Below, one piece after another: positions 515-30,362 of a stretch of DNA of 32,000 nucleotides. The stretch lies in NCBI RefSeq assembly GCF_000014265.1, contig NC_008312.1, positions 3,600,001-3,632,000 on the forward strand. Direction: 5' to 3'. The DNA comes from Trichodesmium erythraeum IMS101 (lineage in GTDB: Bacteria > Cyanobacteriota > Cyanobacteriia > Cyanobacteriales > Microcoleaceae). How positions within the stretch are numbered: position 1 is the first letter of the stretch; each line of letters begins with the position of its first letter. The notes below the pieces were generated by a model. The model saw only the letters and a list, made by a program, of their open reading frames with translations, was not told where the DNA came from and made no database searches. A program made the position numbers and the translations under genes.

Positions 515-1087
515 ATGGCTCTTATAGATATATGGGAAAAAAGCACTGAAATTAGGAAAGATGAGGTGCTACAGATTCACGAGACAGGTAAAGAAGAGAA
601 GAAGCAAAGGCAAGATGTCATTGTTCAAAGGCAAAATGAGGTGCAAGTTATTCATAATGAAGCTTTAGAAGAGAAGAATCAAAGGCAAGACGTCATTGTT
701 AAAAGGCAAAATGAGGTGCAAGTTATTCATAATGAAGCTTTAGAAGAGAAGAAGCAAAGGCAAGATGTCATTGTTGAAAGGCAAAATGATACAAAAGCTG
801 ATCATGAAAAAGCTGTAGCAGATAAGTCCCAAAGGCAAGACGTCATTGTTCAAAGGCAAAATGATACGAAAGCTGATCATGAAAAAGCTGTAGCAGATAA
901 GTCCCAAAGGCAAGATGTCATTGTTGAAAGGCAAAATGATACGAAAGCTGATCATGAAAAAGCTCTAGCTGACAAGAAGCAAAGGCAAGATGAAAAGGAT
1001 GAACGGAGATCCTACGTTTGGGGTTATAAAGCTGGAATTGAAACAAAACAAACGAGTAGTAATGATTCATATCAGCAAATAGCATAA
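515..1087 (+). CDS. Tandem-repeat protein with about 5.5 x 25-aa (75-nt) repeats, highly charged and Q/R/E/K-rich. Function unknown; candidate GvpC-like gas-vesicle surface protein.
   Basis: 190-aa ORF. Repeat units are EEKKQRQDVIVQRQNEVQVIHNEAL (x2) and ADKSQRQDVIV(Q/E)RQNDTKADHEKAV (x3), then a partial unit. The period is exactly 75 nt, so the frame is preserved. It lies at the 5' side of the gvp genes. No sequence similarity to Anabaena-type 33-aa GvpC repeats that I can confirm by eye. Confidence 0.7.
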   Translation: MALIDIWEKSTEIRKDEVLQIHETGKEEKKQRQDVIVQRQNEVQVIHNEALEEKNQRQDVIVKRQNEVQVIHNEALEEKKQRQDVIVERQNDTKADHEKAVADKSQRQDVIVQRQNDTKADHEKAVADKSQRQDVIVERQNDTKADHEKALADKKQRQDEKDERRSYVWGYKAGIETKQTSSNDSYQQIA

Positions 1088-4201: not shown

Positions 4202-5137
4202 TTGACTACTGTACTTAATGTCTCACCTGATAGATTTGTCAGCACCCCTGGTGTTGAACGTGTAACTCAACGCGCTTCTCGTTATTTAGAATCTGGTTAC
4301 TCAGTTCACTTGCGCGGTCCCGCAGGAGTCGGTAAAACAACTCTCGCATTACACTTGGCTCATTTACGTCAGCAACCTATTTTTTTAATGATTGGGGATG
4401 ACGAGTTTAAAACTTCAGATTTAATCGGTAATAAGTCAGGATATACAAGGAAAAAACTTGTAGATAATTACATCCACACTGTATTAAAAGTTGAAGATGA
4501 ACTGAGAGATAATTGGATTGATTCTAGGTTAACCTTAGCTTGTAAGGAAGGCTTCACTCTGATTTATGACGAATTTAACCGCTCTCGTCCAGAGGTAAAC
4601 AATGTTTTACTCTCTGTTTTAGAAGAAAAAATGTTGGTTTTACCACCTAGCCAAAATCAATCTGAATATATTCAGGTTCATCCCCAGTTTAGAGTAATCT
4701 TAACTTCCAACTCTGAGGAGTGGACAGGAGTTCATGCAACTCAAGATGCTTTATTAGACAGGGTGGTGACAATTGGAATGGAACAACCTGATATTTCGAC
4801 TGAGCAGAATATTGTCATACAGAAAACAGGAATAAACCCTCTGAAAGCTGAAGTCATAATTAAGCTGGTGCGCAGTGTTCGCCAAAGAGTGGACAAAGAA
4901 GATTTAGGTAGTTTGCGTTCTGCTCTAATGATTTCTAAAGTTTGTCACGACCATGATATTCCTCTAGATGGTAAAGATTCTAGTTTTTCAGATCTTTGTG
5001 CTGATATATTAATATCACGACCTAATTTGCCTCGGCAGGAAGCTCTGCAGCAACTAGATGAAGTTCTAGAGGAATTTTTCCCCGCTGATCAACCTTCAAG
5101 TTCTGATGTTGGGCTCGAAAAAGAGGGTAGTTTATGA
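4202..5137 (+). CDS. gvpN: Gas vesicle protein GvpN (AAA+/MoxR-like ATPase), copy 1
   Basis: 311 aa with Walker A GPAGVGKTT. It carries long blocks typical of cyanobacterial GvpN: FGDDEFKTSDLIGN.SGYTRKK.VDNYIH, RLTLACKEGFTL.YDEFNRSRPEVNNVLLS, HATQDALLDR. TTG start preceded by AGGAGG. Confidence 0.95.
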   Translation: MTTVLNVSPDRFVSTPGVERVTQRASRYLESGYSVHLRGPAGVGKTTLALHLAHLRQQPIFLMIGDDEFKTSDLIGNKSGYTRKKLVDNYIHTVLKVEDELRDNWIDSRLTLACKEGFTLIYDEFNRSRPEVNNVLLSVLEEKMLVLPPSQNQSEYIQVHPQFRVILTSNSEEWTGVHATQDALLDRVVTIGMEQPDISTEQNIVIQKTGINPLKAEVIIKLVRSVRQRVDKEDLGSLRSALMISKVCHDHDIPLDGKDSSFSDLCADILISRPNLPRQEALQQLDEVLEEFFPADQPSSSDVGLEKEGSL

Positions 5138-5445
5138 AGACAAGCGCTAATATAGCTACATCAGCCAGTGGAAATGGTCTAGCAGATGTACTGGAAAGAG
5201 TGCTGGATAAAGGAGTTGTAATTGCTGGAGATATTTCTGTTTCTATTGCTAGTACAGAACTTCTGAATATTAAAATCCGCCTGTTAATATCCTCGGTGGA
5301 GAGAGCTAAAGAAATTGGAATTAACTGGTGGGAAAGCGATCCCTATTTCAGTAGTCAAAACAATTCTTTGGTGCAGGCCAATGAAAAACTTCTTGAGCGA
5401 GTTGCTTCTCTCGAATCAGAGATAAAAGCACTTCGTAGTAATTAA
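5134..5445 (+). CDS. gvpJ: Gas vesicle protein GvpJ (GvpA/J/M family), copy 1
   Basis: 103 aa. LADVLERVLDKGVVIAGDISVSIASTELLNIKIRLLISSVERAKEIGINWWESDP matches the GvpJ core. The start overlaps the gvpN stop in ATGA, which implies translational coupling. Confidence 0.9.
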   Translation: MKTSANIATSASGNGLADVLERVLDKGVVIAGDISVSIASTELLNIKIRLLISSVERAKEIGINWWESDPYFSSQNNSLVQANEKLLERVASLESEIKALRSN

Positions 5446-5595: not shown

Positions 5596-5820
5596 ATGGT
5601 AACTAATACAGCAAAAAAAATCAAAACTAGTTTGAAAAATATCAAAACTCAGGGAGATATTAAAACTCCGGGAGATATTAAAGCTCTGGAAAATATTTTG
5701 AGCAGTTCGGCTGTTCGTGGTTGTTTGTCTTGTGAATCTATAAAAGGTGATAAAACTCGCGTGCTTGAAACAGCTAGAATCTTAGTTGCACAAAATAGAG
5801 TTTTAAGTCAACAAAAATAA
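5596..5820 (+). CDS. Small basic CxxC protein at the position occupied by gvpX (between gvpJ and gvpK) in Microcystis-type clusters
   Basis: 74-aa ORF. The paralogous ORF at 9393..9575 keeps the frame and the core NIL.S...RGC.SC.SI.G....V..TRIL.A...V.SQ. The aa(a/g)gtagaaaa sequence before the ATG is conserved in both copies. Confidence 0.5.
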   Translation: MVTNTAKKIKTSLKNIKTQGDIKTPGDIKALENILSSSAVRGCLSCESIKGDKTRVLETARILVAQNRVLSQQK

Positions 5821-6013: not shown

Positions 6014-6475
6014 ATGTCTCTAGAAAATTCCCCAGAGGAATCTTTAATTGTTCCCATTGACAAATCTAAAAGTAACCCCGAAGCCGGATTAGCTCCATTA
6101 TTATTAACAGTAATTGAGTTACTAAGGGAACTAATGCAAGCTCAAGTAATTCGGAGGATGGATGCCGGAATACTTAGTGATGAACAATTAGAACGTGCAG
6201 CTGAAGGTCTACGACAGTTAGAGGAACAAGTGATTAAGCTCTGCAAAGTTTTTGATATTCCCACCGAAGATTTGAATTTGGATTTAGGTGAAATTGGTAC
6301 TTTGTTACCCAAGTCGGGAGAGTATTATCCAGGAGAAAAATCTGAGAATCCCTCTGTTTTAGAGCTGTTAGACAGAATTTTGAACACCGGAGTAGTTTTG
6401 GATGGCACTGTAGATTTGGGATTAGCAGAGTTAGATTTGATTCATGCTCGTTTACGCTTGGTTTTGACTGCCTAG
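6014..6475 (+). CDS. gvpK: Gas vesicle protein GvpK
   Basis: 153 aa. AGLAPLLLTVIELLRELMQAQVIRRM...LERAAEGLRQLEEQ...LNLDLGEIGTLLP.SG.YYPG...PSVLELLDR.LNTG.V.DG..DLG.A..DLIHA.LRLVLT is the GvpK signature. Confidence 0.95.
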   Translation: MSLENSPEESLIVPIDKSKSNPEAGLAPLLLTVIELLRELMQAQVIRRMDAGILSDEQLERAAEGLRQLEEQVIKLCKVFDIPTEDLNLDLGEIGTLLPKSGEYYPGEKSENPSVLELLDRILNTGVVLDGTVDLGLAELDLIHARLRLVLTA

Positions 6476-7227: not shown

Positions 7228-7643
7228 TTAGCAGCCAACATATGGCTTAAGTAAGTTAGCAGTCAATATATAGTTTAAGTAAGAATAATCAGGCTAATAA
7301 AGTAAGTTTATTGTCATAGTGTGTAATTTAAGTTAGCAGCCAATATATAGTTTAAGTAAGAATAACCAGGCTAATAAAGCAAGTTTATTTTCATAGTGTG
7401 TAATTATTGATAATTTTTTGTGTGTCTAAATTTGATACTTCCTCTTACTTGTTGTCTGTGAAAAAATTGGATATATGATTTAAGTTCTGAAGATCTTATT
7501 TAAGTTTAAAGCAAGTTTATTGTCATAGTGTGTAATTATTGATAATTTTTTGTGTGTCTAAATTTGATACTTCCTCTTACTTGTTGTCTGTGAAAAAATT
7601 GGATATATGATTTAAGTTCTGAAGATCTTATTTAAGTTTAAAG
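7228..7643. repeat. Composite non-coding tandem repeat array at the junction between the two gvp duplicate units
   Basis: The motif ttagcag(c/t)caa(c/t)atat(g/a)g(c/t)ttaagtaag occurs at 7228, 7256 and 7333. A 77-nt unit (7256-7332) is repeated at 7333-7409. A 132-nt unit (about 7380-7511) is repeated almost perfectly at 7512-7643. Confidence 0.85.
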
Positions 7644-8131: not shown

Positions 8132-9067
8132 TTGACTACTGTACTTAATGTCTCACCTGATAGATTTGTTAGCACCCCTAGTGTTGAACGTGTAACTCAA
8201 CGCGCTTCTCGTTATTTAGAATCCGGTTACTCAGTTCACTTGCGCGGTCCCGCAGGAGTCGGTAAAACAACTCTCGCATTACACTTGGCTCATTTACGTC
8301 AGCAACCTATTTTTTTAATGATTGGGGATGATGAGTTTAAAACCTCAGATTTAATCGGTAATAAGTCAGGATATACAAGGAAAAAACTTGTAGATAATTA
8401 CATCCACACTGTATTAAAAGTTGAAGATGAACTGAAGCATAATTGGATTGATTCTAGGTTAACCTTAGCTTGTAAGGAAGGCTTCACTCTGATTTATGAC
8501 GAATTTAACCGCTCTCGTCCAGAGGTAAACAATGTTTTACTCTCTGTTTTAGAAGAAAAAATGTTGGTTTTACCACCTAGCCAAAATCAATCTGAATATA
8601 TTCAGGTTCATCCCCAGTTTAGAGTAATCTTAACTTCCAACTCTGAGGAATGGACAGGAGTTCATGCAACTCAAGATGCTTTATTAGACAGGGTGGTAAC
8701 AATTGGCATGGGACAACCTGATATTTCGACTGAGCAGAATATCATCATACAGAAAACAGGAATAAACCCTCTGAAAGCTGAAGTCATAATTAAGCTGGTG
8801 CGCAGTGTTCGCGAAAGATTAGAGACAGAAGATTTAGGTAGTTTGCGTTCTGCTCTAATGATTTCTAAAGTTTGTCACGACCATGATATTCCTCTAGGTG
8901 GTAAAGATTCTAATTTTTCAGATCTTTGTGCTGATATATTAATATCACGAGCTAATTTGCCTCGGCAGGAAGCCCTGAAGCAACTAGATGAAGTTCTAGA
9001 GGAACTTTTCCCGGCTGATCAACTTTCAATTTCTGATATTGGGCTCAAAAAAGAGGGTAGTTTATGA
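8132..9067 (+). CDS. gvpN: Gas vesicle protein GvpN, copy 2
   Basis: 311 aa. By my count it has 18 substitutions relative to copy 1 (about 94% identity), mostly in the C-terminal third. It has the same TTG start and AGGAGG site. Confidence 0.95.
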   Translation: MTTVLNVSPDRFVSTPSVERVTQRASRYLESGYSVHLRGPAGVGKTTLALHLAHLRQQPIFLMIGDDEFKTSDLIGNKSGYTRKKLVDNYIHTVLKVEDELKHNWIDSRLTLACKEGFTLIYDEFNRSRPEVNNVLLSVLEEKMLVLPPSQNQSEYIQVHPQFRVILTSNSEEWTGVHATQDALLDRVVTIGMGQPDISTEQNIIIQKTGINPLKAEVIIKLVRSVRERLETEDLGSLRSALMISKVCHDHDIPLGGKDSNFSDLCADILISRANLPRQEALKQLDEVLEELFPADQLSISDIGLKKEGSL

Positions 9068-9378
9068 AGACAAGTGCTAATATAGCTAAATCAGCTGGTG
9101 GAGATAGTCTAGCAGATGTGCTCGAAAGAGTCTTGGATAAAGGAATCGTAATTGCTGGAGATATTTCTGTTTCCATTGCTAGTACAGAACTTCTGAATAT
9201 TAAAATCCGCCTGTTAATATCCTCTGTCGAGAGAGCCAAAGAAATTGGAATTAACTGGTGGGAAAGCGATCCCTCTTTGAGTAGTCAAAACAATTCTTTG
9301 GTGCAGGTCAATCAAAAACTTCTTGAGCGAGTTGCTTCTCTTGAGTCAGAGATAGAAGCGCTTAAATACTCACAATAA
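9064..9378 (+). CDS. gvpJ: Gas vesicle protein GvpJ, copy 2
   Basis: 104 aa, about 87% identical to copy 1 with the same GvpA/J core. It shows the same ATGA overlap with gvpN2. Confidence 0.9.
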   Translation: MKTSANIAKSAGGDSLADVLERVLDKGIVIAGDISVSIASTELLNIKIRLLISSVERAKEIGINWWESDPSLSSQNNSLVQVNQKLLERVASLESEIEALKYSQ

Positions 9379-12620: not shown

Positions 12621-12827
12621 GATGTGAACAAATAGACCAGACTTCTCTGCTCACAATTATTTTTTTCAGTGTAGCTTAATCAAAAAATTGTGTTAGCTAC
12701 ACAGGATAAGTATTCAGCTATTAGATGTGAACACATAGACTAGATTTCTCTGCTCACTATCATTTTGTTCAGTATAGCTTAATCAAAAAATTGTGTTAGC
12801 TACACAGAATAAGCATTAAGCCATTAG
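12621..12827. repeat. 2 x about 103-nt tandem repeat, each unit containing a hairpin (gtgtagc..gctacac), about 150 nt upstream of the AAA+ gene start
   Basis: gatgtgaaca(a/c)atagac(c/t)aga(c/t)ttctctgctcac..gt(g/a)tagcttaatcaaaaaattgtgttagctacacag(g/a)ataag.att.ag.(c/t)attag occurs at 12621-12723 and again at 12724-12827. Confidence 0.85.
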
Positions 12828-13721: not shown

Positions 13722-13979
13722 CTATGCATCTTCCTCTTCTTCTTTAAGCTTTTGTTCTTCTAAGGCCTGAATTGCTAATAAAAGCTCCTCCTCCTGATCT
13801 TCAAAATCTTCTTCCGAAATCTCCCCCATGTCAAAAGCAAGTTGAAGAGTTAGTAGCTTTTTACTAAGATTTTCTGTCTCATCTATTTCTGTATCAACTT
13901 GTTCTTGAAGTTTTTTCCCTAACCACGTAACTCCTTCTAGTGGACCACTAATAGGCAAGGTTAATAAACGTAAAAGCAT
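13722..13979 (-). CDS. gvpG: Gas vesicle protein GvpG
   Basis: 85 aa. MLLRLLTLPISGPLEGVTWLGKKLQEQVDTEIDETENLSKKLLTLQLAFDMGEISEEDFEDQEEELLLAIQALEE matches the GvpG family pattern: PxxGPxxGVxW, LxxLQLxFDxGEIxEEEF and an acidic tail. Confidence 0.9.
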   Translation of the reverse strand: MLLRLLTLPISGPLEGVTWLGKKLQEQVDTEIDETENLSKKLLTLQLAFDMGEISEEDFEDQEEELLLAIQALEEQKLKEEEEDA

Positions 13980-14310
13980 AAGATAATCTCCTTAAATTAG
14001 TTCTATAAGTAAAAACACCCCCACTAGTTACTAACTCTAGCTACTTAACTAATTTTAGCAACTTAAATTAAGGGATTAACTATATGATATACTTATTACA
14101 TAATCATATGTACTAATGTACCTAAAAATTAGAAATTAAAATTCTAAATAATTATTTTGTCTTAACAATTTGTTATAATTTAAAGATTGACATTCAAGTT
14201 GAGATTAAAATAAATTTTGAATAAAAAAAGCATTTAGTTTTGAACACAAAGGGCATTAAGGCATCTGATTGATCACCCAACTAAGTCAAAAAATCATTAA
14301 ATTATTAATT

Positions 14311-15111
14311 ATGGAATTTGGTTTCTACGTTTATGGTCTAATCCAGGAAAAAGGTAAAATGGATGAATCGAAAGATGAATCGAAAAATGGATTAAAAGGA
14401 TCGAATGAATCGAAAGATGAGTTAAAAGGATTGGATAAAGAAGATGTAAAAATTCAAGACGTTGATGAATTTGCAGTGCTTTACTCCATTGCCAAAAAGG
14501 AACGTTATCTAGCAAGTCGTCGTAATTTAATTACCCATGAAAAAGTTCTTGAGTCAGCGATGGAAGCAGGTTATAGAAATTTACTGCCGATGCAATTTGG
14601 TTTAGTAGTTTCTGAGTGGGAAAAATTTTCTCAAGATTTTACTAAACCTTGTGAACAGCAAATTCATGATCTATTCACTAAGTTAAAAAATAATCGAGAA
14701 GTAGGGATAAAAATATATTGGGAGCCAGATGCAGAACTGGAAAAGTTACTGGAAAACGACAAAGATCTAAAAGAGGAAAGAGATAGTTTAAAAGATAAAA
14801 AATTAACCATGGATCAGGTCATTGATATTGGGCAGAAAATTGAACAAGGAATGAATGAACGAAAACAAAATATTATTGAAATTTTTCAAGAAACTCTAAA
14901 TAAAATGGCGATTGAAGTAATAGAAAATGAGGTTCAAACAGAAAAAATGATTTATAATGCAGCTTATCTCATACCTTGGGATCAAGAAGAAGATTTTGGT
15001 GAGAAAGTAGAAACTATTGATAGTAAATTATGTGAACGGGGAAACTTTACAATTCGCTACAATAGTTTTACTGCTCCTTATAATTTTGCTCGAATTAGAC
15101 AACAAGACTGA
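14311..15111 (+). CDS. gvpF: Gas vesicle protein GvpF (GvpL/GvpF family)
   Basis: Strong GvpF blocks are present: YLASRRNLITHEKVLESAMEAGYRNLLPMQFGLVV, REVGIKIYW, MIYNAAYLIPWDQEEDF, IRYNSFTAPYNFA. I prefer the ATG at 14311 (MEFGFYVYGL, the usual family N-terminus) over the TTG at 14269 in the ORF track. Confidence 0.9.
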   Translation: MEFGFYVYGLIQEKGKMDESKDESKNGLKGSNESKDELKGLDKEDVKIQDVDEFAVLYSIAKKERYLASRRNLITHEKVLESAMEAGYRNLLPMQFGLVVSEWEKFSQDFTKPCEQQIHDLFTKLKNNREVGIKIYWEPDAELEKLLENDKDLKEERDSLKDKKLTMDQVIDIGQKIEQGMNERKQNIIEIFQETLNKMAIEVIENEVQTEKMIYNAAYLIPWDQEEDFGEKVETIDSKLCERGNFTIRYNSFTAPYNFARIRQQD

Positions 15112-15411: not shown

Positions 15412-16089
15412 ATGTCATATTATGTCTACGGTTTTCTATATCTACCCGAATCATGTTTAGCATTGCCAAAAGGTATGGAAAAGGAAGTTGAGCTAGTTCC
15501 ATATCAAAATATTGCTGCTGTAGTTGAAGCAAATGTATCTATTGAAGCAATACAGGAAACAGAAGAAAAATTACTAGAAGCAATATTAGCCCATGATCGT
15601 GTAGTTAGAGAAATATTTCAGCAAGTATCTATGCTACCACTAAGATTTGGTAATGCTTTTGCTCTGCGAGAAAATATTATTAATGATTTACAAAATAATC
15701 AGCAACAATATCTGAATATTTTAACTAAACTGCAACAACAAGCAGAATATACTATTACTTTTACTCCAGTTTCTTATCCTTCTACCCTAGAAGTTAGTAA
15801 AGTTCGTGGCAAAGCTTATTTATTAGCCAAAAAACAACAGTTTGAACAACAACAAGCTTTTCAAACTAAGCAACGTCAACAGTGGGAAAATATACGTCAG
15901 TTAATATTCAAGAATTATCCCAAAGCAGTTTTTAGAGATAGTACGGAAAGTAAAATTAAGCAAGTACATCTGTTGGCCAATCGTGATGCCAGAGTTATAA
16001 CTACTGAAGAACTATCAACTTGGCAAACTGAGTGTTCTTATTGGCAAATTACTTTGAGCGAACAACTTCCTCCTTATCATTTTGTCTGA
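15412..16089 (+). CDS. GvpL/GvpF-family gas vesicle protein (second paralog)
   Basis: 225 aa. The N-terminus YYVYGFLYLPE, the LLEAILAHDRVVREIFQQVSMLPLRFGN block and the position beside gvpF fit the family. The Q-rich central part is diverged. Confidence 0.7.
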   Translation: MSYYVYGFLYLPESCLALPKGMEKEVELVPYQNIAAVVEANVSIEAIQETEEKLLEAILAHDRVVREIFQQVSMLPLRFGNAFALRENIINDLQNNQQQYLNILTKLQQQAEYTITFTPVSYPSTLEVSKVRGKAYLLAKKQQFEQQQAFQTKQRQQWENIRQLIFKNYPKAVFRDSTESKIKQVHLLANRDARVITTEELSTWQTECSYWQITLSEQLPPYHFV

Positions 16090-16505
16090 CTTTTAACTGG
16101 GAAAATAATCAAAAAAATCGTCAGGACTAACAAAAAAACTACGTATTGTGGATATTAATTTAGGCGATCGCTATAGGAGAGTAAAACGTAATTGTTGAGT
16201 GTAATGGTACTGAACTTATCTGGCTAATATAAAAGTATAGCAAGCAATAGCTATTAGTAAAATTATGTTGGTCAAACCTTAGGTATTAGCCAGAATAATT
16301 TCTTAATTATATGGTTATTTTTTATAGTCTTTAAACATAACTTTAATGGCCATTGTCGGCCGATAAATTTTTAGGATATGATCTAAATTGTCAAGATTTA
16401 TAAAAAATACCAAGGTTCTTTTTCCATTGTGATAATGTAAAAAATACAAAGCTTAAAGTTTTAATATTTTAGTAATTAAAATGTTTACATAAGAGGTATT
16501 AAGTT

Positions 16506-17300
16506 ATGAGCGAACATTATCGTCAAGAGTTAGTTCGTGATGGTCAACGTCGTTTTGATGAGTGGCACGGTAAGTTTCTGAAGTATCAGAAAAAATATCT
16601 GAAGTATCAGAAAAAATATCTGAAGTATCAGAAAGAATTTACCCAGTCAGTTGATAATGAGCATTATCGTCAAGAGTTAGTTCGTGATGGTCAACGTCGT
16701 TTTGATGAGTGGCACACTGAGTTTCTGAGGTATCAGAAAGAATATCTGAAGTATCAGAAAGAATTTATCGAGTCAGTTGATAATGAGCATTATCGTCAAG
16801 AGTTAGTTCGTGATGGTCAACGTCGTTTTGATGAGTGGCACACTGAGTTTTTGAGGTATCAGAAAGAATTTATCGAGTCAGTTGGTAATGAGCATTATCG
16901 TCAAGAGTTAGTTCGTGATGGTCAACGTCGTTTTGATGAGTGGCACACTGAGTTTCTGAGGTATCAGAAAGAATTTATCCAGTCACTTGATAATGAACAG
17001 AATAAACAAAAGTTAGTTGGTGATCGTGAAACTCGTTATAAAAAGAAAGAGTCACAGGACAAACTTAGAGTGAAAAAATCTAAGCAACCAGCTAAGAATA
17101 AACCTGATCAACAAAAGTTAGGTGCTGCTGGTAAAAATCCTCGTAAGGAGAAAGAGTTGAACGATAAATTTGGAGGGGAGAAACTTCGGGAGTCAATTGC
17201 TGGTGAACATTATCGTCAAATGTTAGTTCGTGATGGTCAACGTCGTTTTGATGAGTGGCACGAGTCATATCACGGATATATAAAAAAGTTGCGCGGGTAG
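16506..17300 (+). CDS. Tandem-repeat protein with a 35-aa core repeat and 7-aa heptad expansions; candidate GvpC-type gas-vesicle protein
   Basis: 264 aa. The unit EHYRQELVRDGQRRFDEWHTEFLRYQKEF(I/T)(E/Q)S(V/L)(D/G)N occurs four times, with unit lengths of 49, 42, 35 and 35 aa. The length differences are 2, 1, 0 and 0 extra YLKYQKK heptads of 21 nt each. A K-rich linker of about 70 aa follows, then a fifth half-unit (EHYRQMLVRDGQRRFDEWH). It lies at the 3' edge of the gvp island. Confidence 0.75.
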   Translation: MSEHYRQELVRDGQRRFDEWHGKFLKYQKKYLKYQKKYLKYQKEFTQSVDNEHYRQELVRDGQRRFDEWHTEFLRYQKEYLKYQKEFIESVDNEHYRQELVRDGQRRFDEWHTEFLRYQKEFIESVGNEHYRQELVRDGQRRFDEWHTEFLRYQKEFIQSLDNEQNKQKLVGDRETRYKKKESQDKLRVKKSKQPAKNKPDQQKLGAAGKNPRKEKELNDKFGGEKLRESIAGEHYRQMLVRDGQRRFDEWHESYHGYIKKLRG

Positions 17301-17963
17301 CAACAAGAGTAACGAGGAAGTTTATACTCTAGCTCCTTCCTATGGAAAATTTACTATAATTAGTTGATAATGAATATTATCTCTAAAAGTTAATTCCTGA
17401 TTTTCAACTTTTCAACTTTCTTTTAATGAGTAACAGGGGGTTTTTTGAGATATAAAAAATCTCCAAGGTAAGCAACGTCTGGTTTAAGGCGTTGCTAAGT
17501 TTATCTCTGAATTTGTCTAACTGAAGTACTGGAATACTTCAAACTAGCGATCGCTCACAACCCTCGGAAAATTTGTGATTTATTCAAAAGTTTGCTCCCT
17601 GAAATTTTTGTTGGAGCAAGAACATCCTAAAACCGAAAATAGTAAATTAGCAATTGAATTTAGTATTTGAAGATGTCTAATATAAATCTTCAGAAAAGCT
17701 TCTTTTACCCTGACCCTGGCTGTTCCCAAATGGGCATTTTGGATAGTCTCTTGATAGAATAACAAATGGTTTGACAATGTATTCGAGCTATTAGGATATC
17801 TCCCATATCATATTTTTTCCTTCGACTGTTGCCATATCAGTGTTACTAATAGTTTTGATTTGCCTTTGGTATAACAGAGGAATATACTTTCCCATAAATT
17901 AAATCTACTAAAAAATCATTCAATAGCCGAATCATTAATTTTACTCTTCTACAATTTGTTCAT

Positions 17964-27593: not shown

Positions 27594-27843
27594 TTATGTG
27601 GCAGGTGTCTGGTTTCAGGTGGCAGGTGGTAGGGTTGAATTTCTACTAAGGTTCATTGGTGCTTTTATTTATTTAATGTAGGCGGCAGGTCTCAGGTTTC
27701 AGGCCGCAGGTGGTAGGGTTGAATTTCTACTAAGGTTCATTGGTGCTTTTATTTATTTAATGTAGGCGGCAGGTCTCAGGTTTCAGGCGGCAGGTGGTAG
27801 GGTTGAATTTCTACTAAGGTTCATTGGTGCTTTTATTTATTTA
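27594..27843. repeat. 3 x 84-nt near-perfect tandem repeat, non-coding, about 200 nt upstream of the kinase start
   Basis: The unit is gtaggcggcaggtctcaggtttcagg(c/g)cgcaggtggtagggttgaatttctactaaggttcattggtgcttttatttatttaat. Unit starts are at about 27594, 27678 and 27762. Each unit contains 2-3 ggcaggt sub-motifs. Confidence 0.9.
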
Positions 27844-28412: not shown

Positions 28413-30362
28413 TTAAGATCCTCGTAATTCTTTGAGTTGATCTAGAGAGTTTTGATACCATGTTTGATTTCCTTGTTGTTTGTATAAGTCGGCAGCTTTT
28501 TCAAAGTCTGATATAGCTTTTTCCATATTTCTTTGATCCTTGTTAGTCAGACCCCTGGTGTAGTAAGCATTAGCATATTTGGGATTAAGTTGAATGGCTT
28601 GGCTATAGTCAGCGATCGCCAAGTCATATTTTCCCTGGTCATCGTAAACATTACCCCTGTTGTAGTAAGCATAAGCATCTTTGGGATTAAGTTGAATGGC
28701 TTGGCTATAGTCAGCGAGCGCCAAATCATATTTTCTCTGGTCATTGTAAACCAAACCCCTGTTGTTGTAAGGCAGCCAAAGCTGAGGGTTATTTAGTCTG
28801 ATGGATTCGTTATAGTCAGCGAGCGCCAAATCATATTTTCCCTGCTTACGGTAAACCGCACCCCTGTTGTTGTAAGCTTCAGCCAATTTGGGATTAAGTT
28901 GAATGGCTTGGTTATAGTCAGCGATCGCCAAATCATATTTTCCCTGCTCAAGGTAAACACCACCCCTGTTGTTGTAAGCCTCAGCATATTTGGGATTAAG
29001 TTGAATGGCTTGGTTATAGTCAGCGAGCGCCAAATCATATTTTCCCTGGTCATCGTAAACCACACCCCTGTTGTTGTAAGCATAAGCATATTTGGGATTA
29101 AGTTGAATGGCTTGGTTAAACTCAGCGATCGCCAAATCATATTTTCCTTGGTCATCGTAAACCAAACCCCTGTTGTTGTAAGCTTCAGCATATTTGGGAT
29201 TAAGTTGAATGGCTTGGTTATAGTCAGCGAGCGCCAAATCATATTTTCCCTGGTTATAGTAAACATTACCCCTGTTTTTGTAAGCATCAGCATATTTGGG
29301 ATTAAGTTGAATGGCTTGGTTTAAGTCAGCGAGCGCCAAATCATATTTTCCCTGCTTACGGTAAACAATACCCCTGTTGTTGTAAGCATCAGCATATTTG
29401 GGATTAAGTTGAATGGCTTGGTTATAGTCAGCGAGCGCCTGTTCAAATTCTTCCCTATCATGGTGTTTATCTCCTTGTTCATAGTAACTTTCGGCATTCT
29501 GAATTTGAGATGGAGTAACATTATCAGTATTTCCAACAGCCCGATTTTTAGGGGAAGGTATCGGAGAAGGCAAAGCAGCAGAAGTTGACCTCACCAAAAC
29601 CCTGCTCACCTGCTGTGGTATATCCCGCAAAAAAGTCGAAACCAAAACCCCCTCCCCATCTCCAGCCTTTGTCAACCCCACATGAATACCCATCAACTGC
29701 CCCGCCTTATTCAAAACCGCCCCCCCACTCATACCAGGATATACACCCTCACCAGGTACAGTAGGCTCATAATTTAAAAGATCTCCTGCCCGTGGGTTAG
29801 TCACCTTCGCCGGAGTGAACTGAAAACCTTCCCTATTCTCAGCCCCAGGCCAACCCCCCACATAAACTTCACTATTTTTCCTTAACTGACTCGCTTCCCC
29901 TACTTCAGCCACCTTATATTGCTTCACACTAGCAAACTTAAACACAGCCAAATCTGCATCTGGATAACGGTAGATAATTTCTAGCTTCAGAATTTCCGCA
30001 TCCTCCCCCGGTTTTTTACTGCGAACAACTACCCGATAGTCATCTTGGTACTGAAAAATATGCTTGGCAGTGAGCACATAATAAGTAGAACCTTGTTTAC
30101 CAATAATAACCCCCGAACCTGACGAGCTAAAAGGGTCACCTCCAGAAACAGTACTACGAGCAACAACTTCTACAGTAATATTTTCAGCTAATCTATATAT
30201 ATAAATTTGGTTGAAAGGAGCATTGTCTTGTCTAGGAGTAATAATTGGATCAGGTCTAGAAATTTTAGTAGAAACATCTGTACTTATTTGTGATTCATAT
30301 TTATTGCAGCTGACCAGAGCAATAGTAATTAACCCAACAGTTAGTTTAGTAATATGTTTCAT
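28413..30362 (-). CDS. Lipoprotein with a trypsin-like (S1/chymotrypsin-fold) serine protease domain fused to about 10 TPR repeats
   Basis: 649 aa. The signal peptide and lipobox are MKHITKLTVGLITIALVSC. The catalytic triad contexts are TAKHIF, DADLAVFKF and GMSGGAV. About 10 consecutive 34-aa TPRs follow (A.AYNNRG.VY..QGKYDLA.ADYNQAIQLNPKY). Confidence 0.9.
   Translation of the reverse strand: MKHITKLTVGLITIALVSCNKYESQISTDVSTKISRPDPIITPRQDNAPFNQIYIYRLAENITVEVVARSTVSGGDPFSSSGSGVIIGKQGSTYYVLTAKHIFQYQDDYRVVVRSKKPGEDAEILKLEIIYRYPDADLAVFKFASVKQYKVAEVGEASQLRKNSEVYVGGWPGAENREGFQFTPAKVTNPRAGDLLNYEPTVPGEGVYPGMSGGAVLNKAGQLMGIHVGLTKAGDGEGVLVSTFLRDIPQQVSRVLVRSTSAALPSPIPSPKNRAVGNTDNVTPSQIQNAESYYEQGDKHHDREEFEQALADYNQAIQLNPKYADAYNNRGIVYRKQGKYDLALADLNQAIQLNPKYADAYKNRGNVYYNQGKYDLALADYNQAIQLNPKYAEAYNNRGLVYDDQGKYDLAIAEFNQAIQLNPKYAYAYNNRGVVYDDQGKYDLALADYNQAIQLNPKYAEAYNNRGGVYLEQGKYDLAIADYNQAIQLNPKLAEAYNNRGAVYRKQGKYDLALADYNESIRLNNPQLWLPYNNRGLVYNDQRKYDLALADYSQAIQLNPKDAYAYYNRGNVYDDQGKYDLAIADYSQAIQLNPKYANAYYTRGLTNKDQRNMEKAISDFEKAADLYKQQGNQTWYQNSLDQLKELRGS

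Follow-up and report, generated by a model that had tools for sequence, protein, structure and literature searches.

The gas vesicle (gvp) island of Trichodesmium erythraeum IMS101 carries at its edge a gene for a tandem-repeat protein of 264 amino acids (aa). We are inclined to regard this gene as a Trichodesmium-specific tandem expansion of a gvp-associated single-helix family, and its product as a multivalent accessory or shell-binding protein of gas vesicles. The gene occupies positions 16506 to 17300 of a stretch of 32,000 nucleotides (nt) from contig NC_008312.1 (assembly GCF_000014265.1, positions 3,600,001 to 3,632,000). This whole stretch is referred to as the window, and coordinates are those of the window unless another source is named. 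The family consists of cyanobacterial mini-proteins, mostly of about 48 aa, for which a published name was not found and for which we use "family X" as a working name.

Architecture of the repeat gene

The open reading frame (ORF) for the 264-aa protein is intact and is the sole ORF of more than 60 aa on the forward strand at 16506-17300. The following features were assigned to the gene and its immediate surroundings, in part with Tandem Repeats Finder (TRF).

16491..16496, forward strand: Shine-Dalgarno-like AAGAGG, 9 nt 5′ of the ATG (read from the sequence)
16506..17300, forward strand: coding sequence of the 264-aa repeat protein, including the stop codon (ORF listing, ATG start, units match a conserved family)
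16512..16658, forward strand: unit 1, 49 aa, i.e. the 35-aa core and two extra YLKYQKK heptads (unit alignments)
16577..16638, forward strand: nested 21-nt tandem repeat, 3.0 copies, 97% matches (TRF)
16659..16784, forward strand: unit 2, 42 aa, i.e. the core and one extra heptad (unit alignments)
16724-16764: nested 21-nt repeat within unit 2, 2.0 copies (TRF)
16785..16889, forward strand: unit 3, 35 aa (unit alignments)
16890..16994, forward strand: unit 4, 35 aa (unit alignments)
16995..17204, forward strand: Lys/Arg-rich linker, 70 aa, isoelectric point (pI) 10.1 (composition; predicted local distance difference test score, pLDDT, below 50 at about residues 191-242)
16995..17051, forward strand: decayed unit remnant EQNKQKLVGDRETRYKKKE, the first 19 linker residues (the 105-nt TRF array reaches 17024; codon-by-codon likeness to a unit start)
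17205..17297, forward strand: C-terminal unit, 31 aa (aa 234-264), with the full conserved core and the variant tail ESYHGYIKKLRG (unit alignments)
17363..17407, forward strand: possible decayed unit-boundary remnant VDNEYYL*, about 60 nt 3′ of the stop codon (tblastn, weak, E = 2)
17471..17496, forward strand: terminator-like hairpin, 10 pairs followed by a T-rich tail (consensus match only)

An initial annotation, made from the sequence without database searches, had described four consecutive units built on a 35-aa core, with lengths of 49, 42, 35 and 35 aa. TRF and the unit alignments uphold this description. The units differ by 14, 7, 0 and 0 residues of YLKYQK[KE], which corresponds to two, one, no and no extra copies of a 7-aa element encoded by 21 nt. 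On the DNA level, TRF reports a 126-nt period with 2.2 copies (16598-16869, 96% matches, score 509) and a 105-nt period with 2.7 copies (16745-17024, 91% matches, score 469). The leading 19 residues are identical across the five intact units according to the alignment.

The region behind the four units had to be revised. While the Lys-rich linker was recognized correctly, what had been taken for a C-terminal half-unit is a near-complete unit, as its 31 aa span the whole family core of about 30 aa. Its tail ESYHGYIKKLRG is of the same type as in the first unit of a two-unit homologue from Microcystis. In addition, the linker had been placed directly after the four units, and its first 19 residues now turn out to be a decayed further unit. 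The remnant at 17363-17407 may have been left behind by a formerly longer array or by a rearrangement.

The protein has a mass of 33 kDa and a pI of 9.5. Its repeat block of 161 aa is charge-balanced and contains 38 aromatic or His residues, and the aromatic and charged composition noted before was thus confirmed. An Rfam scan of the whole window revealed no RNA family, and none overlapping the repeat gene.

The repeat unit belongs to a conserved family of mini-proteins

An exact-product lookup of the 264-aa protein found no record. A word-index search with the whole protein retrieved one Trichodesmium relative only, Lys-rich low-complexity words having swamped the candidates. The closest relatives of the protein are from metagenome-assembled genomes (MAGs) of Trichodesmium. 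When a profile of the five units of the window was compared to 1.84 billion representative proteins, 30 proteins were matched at E <= 1e-3 and 12 at E <= 1e-10, with the best E value being as low as 5e-22. Nearly all of these are 34-111 aa long and have a single copy of the motif, with one exception, P0021, which has 336 aa.

Later searches used an alignment of 23 sequences and covered 5.8 billion proteins, where 233 protein clusters were matched, as well as species-representative genomes, where 141 stretches were confirmed. Among the 120 matches listed of the 233 clusters there is no Pfam domain, and all names given by the sources are "hypothetical protein" or similar except for that of P0134 ("vacuolar-type H+-ATPase subunit B/Vma2", an evident misannotation). 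The locus counts given below rest on 80 species loci kept of the 141 stretches. Named records among these 80 are cyanobacterial, except for MAG L017 (Candidatus Obscuribacterales), and several are labelled only as "uncultured bacterium". The genera with family X include Pseudanabaena, Planktothrix, Leptolyngbya, Microcystis, Okeania, Dactylococcopsis, Roseofilum, Thermostichus and Tumidithrix. At the 80 loci the proteins have 40-92 aa, mostly about 48 aa, and they have one unit, rarely two.

The motif of the family, (K/R)YI(S/D)SExYRQMLVRDG(D/E)RRFxEWHxxFLxYQxxFL, is highly conserved in alignments across distantly related cyanobacterial groups. The window units show 67-76% identity to single-unit members, and none of the five intact Trichodesmium units lacks any of the nine invariant residues (E, Y, R, L, V, D, R, W, H). 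Motif and a predicted single helix are common to the Trichodesmium units and to family X, examples being P0033, P0010 and the 89-aa two-unit form of Microcystis. Linkage to gvp genes is seen for the Trichodesmium gene and for a part of the family loci. The differences concern size (264 aa, made up of 4 + 1 units, one decayed unit and a basic linker of 70 aa, as compared to 40-92 aa with one or two units), the internal heptad insertions, and the gene position, which is at the island edge after gvpL and not upstream of gvpK. Among the 30 representative matches and the 80 loci, the Trichodesmium protein is the sole member with more than two units.

Scans of the 264-aa protein against Pfam-A and NCBIfam resulted in no credible family, the notable match being a sub-threshold one to NF045479 (FRAT-87) from NCBIfam. 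This model matches aa 225-255 of the protein and aa 31-60 of its counterpart in a T. thiebautii-like MAG (L001, 7765-8103) with 32.8 and 30.4 bits, respectively, the curated cut-off being 50. About 30 residues around ...EHYRQxLVRDGQRRFDE... fit to profile positions 7-38 of 86 (E = 7e-8 and 4e-7). However, both scores are below the cut-off, and FRAT-87 matches only Trichodesmium units with GQRRFDE and none of the other family X members. A literature search for the identity of FRAT-87 returned nothing. In the literature covered by our searches, there was no earlier account of a Trichodesmium gvpC, of a gene located between gvpJ and gvpK or of the motif.

Association of family X with gas vesicle genes

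The Gvp proteins of the window were compared by tblastn to the 80 loci, and a locus was counted as linked if a gvp gene was found within 10 kb. This is the case for 29 of the 80 loci and for 16 of the 42 loci that have at least 5 kb on both sides. Even with a generous null, where about 0.6% of a genome is within 10 kb of a gvp cluster, we infer that 16 of 42 is far outside chance. The arrangement gvpJ-X-gvpK on one strand occurs at 20 loci, and X-gvpK at five more. In a typical cluster the order is gvpN-gvpJ-X-gvpK-gvpF-gvpG with X immediately upstream of gvpK, and at several loci the gap between X and gvpK, as deduced from coordinates, is about 30 nt or less.

Clusters which carry X also hold a GvpC-like gene between gvpA and gvpN. 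In Microcystis, the two-unit X precedes gvpA by about 1.1 kb, and there is also a canonical GvpC with 33-aa repeats. Okeania, a close relative of Trichodesmium, has a one-unit X of 90 aa at the edge of its gvp island. Linked and unlinked members do not differ in their closeness to the window unit (P = 0.18). The association of family X with gvp genes is strong, yet not exclusive. In the initial annotation, frequent homologues in genomes without gvp genes had been considered to argue against a GvpC function. Homologues do occur away from gvp genes, which in part speaks against this function.

An X-gvpK pair in Roseofilum acuticapitatum (L075, 9992-10608) is located amid a DNA methyltransferase, a PIN-domain toxin pair and a reverse transcriptase. 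No gvp gene besides gvpK was found within 10 kb on either side of this X. The pair either is what remains of a decayed cluster or works as a module of two genes.

A predicted single helix with an aromatic seam

For a family X protein (P0033) with an alignment of 65 sequences, AlphaFold2 predicts one continuous helix (residues 10-50) with a core pLDDT of >90. When the 264-aa protein was modelled alone, one helix per unit was obtained, with breaks at the unit borders and a disordered linker, at a pLDDT of 49. Long amphipathic helices had been expected beforehand; the helices are borne out by AlphaFold2, and their amphipathic character by the helical hydrophobic moment, which is significant for the units (z ~3). 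The N-terminal half of each unit is highly conserved and charged. A Foldseek search of the PDB with the single-helix model returned no match, which is what an isolated helix should give. A helix-turn-helix reading of the 35-aa unit, resembling tetratricopeptide (TPR) or pentatricopeptide (PPR) repeats, was rejected, as there is no break at RDG in the alignment-based model.

From residue 15 on, the units follow a heptad register with F-W-F-Y-(Y-Y)n-F-S in the a/d positions. In unit 1 these positions are F W F Y Y Y Y Y F S, which represents an all-aromatic seam. Each YLKYQKK insert is exactly one heptad and contributes one Tyr in position a and one in position d, so that an expansion lengthens the helix by two turns and leaves the seam unbroken. 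As the sequence shows, the length variation extends the aromatic seam by whole heptads. The further suggestion that heptad steps might re-register the helix on the vesicle shell is speculative.

Position of the repeat gene in the gvp island

According to Pfam and NCBIfam, the window starts with an ORF at 515-1087, followed by genes for an ArsA-like ATPase and a 138-aa ORF, and by gvpN, gvpJ, a 74-aa ORF and gvpK. Behind gvpK there are a second gvpN-gvpJ, a CDC48-type AAA ATPase (reverse strand), gvpG (reverse strand), gvpF, a gvpL/F paralogue, the repeat gene and smpB (reverse strand). The genes upstream of the repeat gene were assigned as follows.

13722-13979, reverse strand: gvpG (Pfam and NCBIfam scans), upstream of the repeat gene
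14269-15111, forward strand: gvpF (Pfam and NCBIfam scans), upstream of the repeat gene
15412-16089, forward strand: gvpL/F paralogue (Pfam and NCBIfam scans), immediately upstream of the repeat gene

A location at the edge of the gvp island, as proposed from the sequence alone, is confirmed by this order, and gvpL-repeat gene-smpB is also kept in other Trichodesmium genomes. There is no gvpA within the 32,000 nt of the window, and on related contigs five or six gvpA copies are found directly 5′ of the ORF at 515-1087. For the 74-aa ORF between gvpJ and gvpK (5596-5820, forward strand), relatives outside Trichodesmium could not be detected.

Comparison to GvpC

The initial annotation proposed the repeat protein to be a non-canonical GvpC. 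This proposal is supported insofar as the protein is gvp-linked, repetitive, apparently variable, and predicted to be helical and amphipathic. It is not supported insofar as no similarity to GvpC was found and the gvpC slot is occupied by another protein. The comparison to the GvpC family was negative, with no match to Gas_vesicle_C (PF01304) in a Pfam scan of the 264-aa protein at E <= 1 and an hhalign probability of 0.1% against an alignment of eight cyanobacterial GvpC-like proteins. A tblastn search with an Anabaena GvpC query resulted in no match in the window, and in a PDB sequence search with the 264-aa protein no E value was below 0.35.

The repeats and the length variants of GvpC have been described before (PMC5741684, PMC5259702). 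The repeat protein and GvpC have in common that both are encoded in gvp islands, consist of tandem alpha-helical repeats of about 33-35 residues, are length-polymorphic between strains and fast-evolving, and may plausibly bind in a multivalent manner. The shared architecture with one helix per unit relies on AlphaFold2, with low confidence for the full-length protein and high confidence for a homologous single unit. In contrast to GvpC, the period is 35, 42 or 49 aa and not 33, and the unit also exists on its own, as a mini-protein encoded alongside GvpC-like genes. This coexistence in the same clusters argues that the ancestral role of family X is not that of GvpC. While gvpC is found directly 3′ of gvpA, the repeat gene follows gvpL at the other end of the island, about 15 kb beyond the ORF at 515-1087. 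Finally, the C-terminal ...VWG motif of the GvpC-like proteins that we collected is absent from the repeat protein.

It had also been assumed that the window contains no gvpC candidate, which now seems doubtful because of one ORF with GvpC-like termini.

515-1087, forward strand: 190-aa protein with five repeats of 25 aa (75 nt), in the canonical gvpC slot, which directly follows the gvpA copies (TRF, related contigs)

Its termini (MALIDIW... and ...RRSYVWGY) resemble those of GvpC-like proteins (MALKDQW... and ...AYVWGE). BLASTP comparison to GvpC-like proteins resulted in E values of 0.016 and 0.09 for short collinear terminal matches, which is suggestive and not a proof, and hhalign aligned only 10 columns to GvpC-like proteins with no significant profile match. 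The relatives found are four unnamed metagenome protein clusters only (115-140 aa, 44-74% identical). The family is length-variable, with 115, 140 and 190 aa corresponding to two, three and five repeats. Judged from position and sequence, this ORF probably codes for a divergent GvpC of Trichodesmium, and its product is the competing candidate for the outer-layer protein. Like the 264-aa protein, it is a charged repeat protein of variable length encoded in this island, while an unrelated sequence, a 25-aa period, the lack of an aromatic seam and a low hydrophobic moment set it apart.

Proposed function and alternative explanations

The fixed adjacency to gvpK and gvpJ suggests a docking partner with a GvpA fold. 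We propose that the single helix of family X would dock on such a gas vesicle protein, with GvpK, GvpJ and GvpA being the candidates. In Trichodesmium, five docking helices would be connected by short breaks (SVDN/SVGN) and by the flexible basic linker of 70 aa, and the product could be a multivalent binder which bridges several subunits, either on the shell or while vesicles are assembled. Gene structure, homology to family X, gvp linkage of this family, the predicted helix and the heptad pattern are direct results, while we infer the partner bound, the multivalency and an effect on vesicle strength. The repeat protein may thus work somewhat like GvpC, yet it is not a member of the GvpC family. 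A more far-reaching version assumes that the YRQMLVRDG-helix family is an unrecognized conserved gas vesicle component with GvpK, GvpJ or the GvpA shell as its docking site, and that the five-helix string of Trichodesmium, whose vesicles are the narrowest and strongest known, is a second, non-homologous GvpC-like reinforcing or cross-linking protein, the length of which is tuned in heptad and unit steps. We consider this version unlikely as it stands.

Several observations weigh against an expanded gas vesicle accessory protein. About 60% of the family X members are not next to gvp genes, and the domain may thus have a more general partner. In Pseudanabaena the order without gvp genes is serA-X-prmC, and X has still other neighbours in Planktothrix, Tumidithrix and Thermostichus (for Planktothrix, gvp clusters are reported in all 15 genomes compared in one paper, PMC5259702). 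In Trichodesmium itself the repeat gene is outside the gvpJ-gvpK slot, which is filled by the unrelated 74-aa ORF, and confidence in the full-length model is low (pLDDT 49). The gene also evolves fast. When the window was compared to the T. thiebautii-like MAG L001 (138 alignable codons), the nonsynonymous rate dN was 0.12 and the synonymous rate dS 0.14, with a ratio (omega) of ~0.9, as compared to dN <= 0.015 and omega of 0-0.26 for the neighbouring genes. The gene is split in two in T. thiebautii-like MAGs, where the upstream gene has three or two units and the downstream gene has one unit, the linker and the C-terminal unit. In the upstream gene, two units no longer have the invariant W-H (W to S and H to R). 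The split and the lost W-H fit to a relaxed constraint on extra copies.

Repeat numbers apparently differ between Trichodesmium lineages, with 4+1 units in the window and 3+1+1 or 2+1+1 in MAGs; a comparison across strains had been called for in the initial annotation. Other, T. erythraeum-like Trichodesmium assemblies have N gaps within this array, and copy number therefore depends on assembly quality. In L001 (7765-8650) and in a second MAG, L002 (7763-8543), the 5′ region is duplicated including upstream non-coding sequence, and the upstream gene has three units in the one and two in the other. This difference in unit number could be real variation or an assembly collapse.

Alternatively, the array might be an unstable by-product with little or no gas vesicle function, where slippage and unequal recombination have expanded a mini-protein gene at the island edge and the extra units drift neutrally, the family having a role unrelated to vesicles. 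This would agree with an omega of ~0.9 and a dN at least 8-fold above that of neighbouring genes, with near-identical DNA repeats (91-97% matches) that indicate recent expansion, with the split gene and the loss of W-H, with the decayed unit inside the ORF and the possible remnant after the stop codon, and with the fact that most family X members are not gvp-linked. However, the ORF is intact and has a Shine-Dalgarno-like site, all indels are in frame and heptad-sized, and the nine family-invariant residues are kept in all five intact units. Substitutions between lineages avoid invariant positions: of the 14 residue changes that unit 4 and the C-terminal unit show together (window compared to L001), not one affects any of the 18 family-invariant positions (P = 0.006). 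Moreover, gvp linkage and the fixed slot of family X are far beyond chance, and the place at the island edge is kept in the Trichodesmium lineages compared, with the Okeania homologue likewise being at the edge. We regard a neutral by-product as quite unlikely. It seems even less probable that family X acts as a small helix with a regulatory or chaperone-like role, such as a modulator of an ATPase like GvpN or of gvp expression, with the Trichodesmium array being a multimerized regulator. In favour of this, the very high conservation of the polar face (E, R, D, G, R, R, E, H) is typical for a specific partner interface, family X occurs both inside and outside of gvp clusters, and in Microcystis the gene is outside the operon, about 1.1 kb upstream of gvpA. 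On the other hand, Pfam, NCBIfam and a profile search found no DNA-binding or known regulatory domain, X is inside the structural operon at most gvp-linked loci with a gap to gvpK of about 30 nt or less in several, and an isolated helix of 40 residues that bears an aromatic seam rather resembles a docking element.

Fast evolution and an apparently variable number of units are also to be expected if the repeat protein is the functional GvpC of Trichodesmium, which would form an outer layer on the GvpA ribs and tune collapse pressure by repeat or heptad number. GvpC repeats are poorly conserved between genera, while the motif of family X is highly conserved across distant cyanobacterial groups. 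This difference, the lack of similarity to GvpC by Pfam, hhalign or PDB sequence search, the gvpC position being held by the length-variable ORF at 515-1087 with its GvpC-like termini, the coexistence of single-unit relatives with GvpC-like genes in the same clusters, and the many relatives outside gvp clusters all speak against it. They outweigh, in our view, the tandem amphipathic helical repeats of about 35 aa, which are close to the 33-aa period of GvpC, and their location in the gvp island, so that a genuine GvpC function appears improbable. It can be added in its favour that GvpC length is known to vary between Planktothrix strains (PMC5259702), and that an extra reinforcing layer would make sense for Trichodesmium, as its vesicles are the narrowest and densest known (PMC4187190).

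Implications

Gas vesicles are buoyancy organelles and have been engineered as acoustic reporter genes, and the catalogue of gvp-cluster proteins is generally regarded as well known. Family X, which occupies a fixed gvpJ-X-gvpK slot in many lineages and has neither a Pfam or NCBIfam model nor a name, is a candidate component for work on assembly and reconstitution. With the 264-aa protein and the ORF at 515-1087, a single Trichodesmium island contains two independent length-variable repeat proteins. This makes a long-standing question directly testable, i.e. how Trichodesmium vesicles attain their exceptional pressure resistance without a recognizable GvpC. If the repeat protein has no role in vesicles, the locus is still a clean case of in-frame, heptad-quantized expansion of an amphipathic helix.

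Other features of the window

GvpK (6014-6475, forward strand) has a C-terminal GvpA-like domain (PF05121 and PF00741), and the same fusion is found in the gvpK that adjoins X in Roseofilum and Microcystis. There are two copies of the gvpN-gvpJ module (4202-5445 and 8132-9378, both forward strand), and the encoded pairs are nearly identical (311/311 aa and 103/104 aa). GvpF (14269-15111) has an N-terminal Lys/Glu/Ser-rich insert that originates from a 30-nt repeat (14375-14431), and it scores 327 bits against the NCBIfam GvpF cut-off of 350.

Non-coding tandem repeats occur between gvpK and the second gvpN (7228-7643, with a 77-nt and a 132-nt period), between the gene for the AAA ATPase and gvpG (12621-12827, two copies of 103 nt) and elsewhere in the window (27600-27843, 2.9 copies of 84 nt). 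A protein of 649 aa (28413-30362, reverse strand) combines a trypsin-like N-terminal part with 8.7 near-identical TPR repeats of 34 aa (102-nt period).

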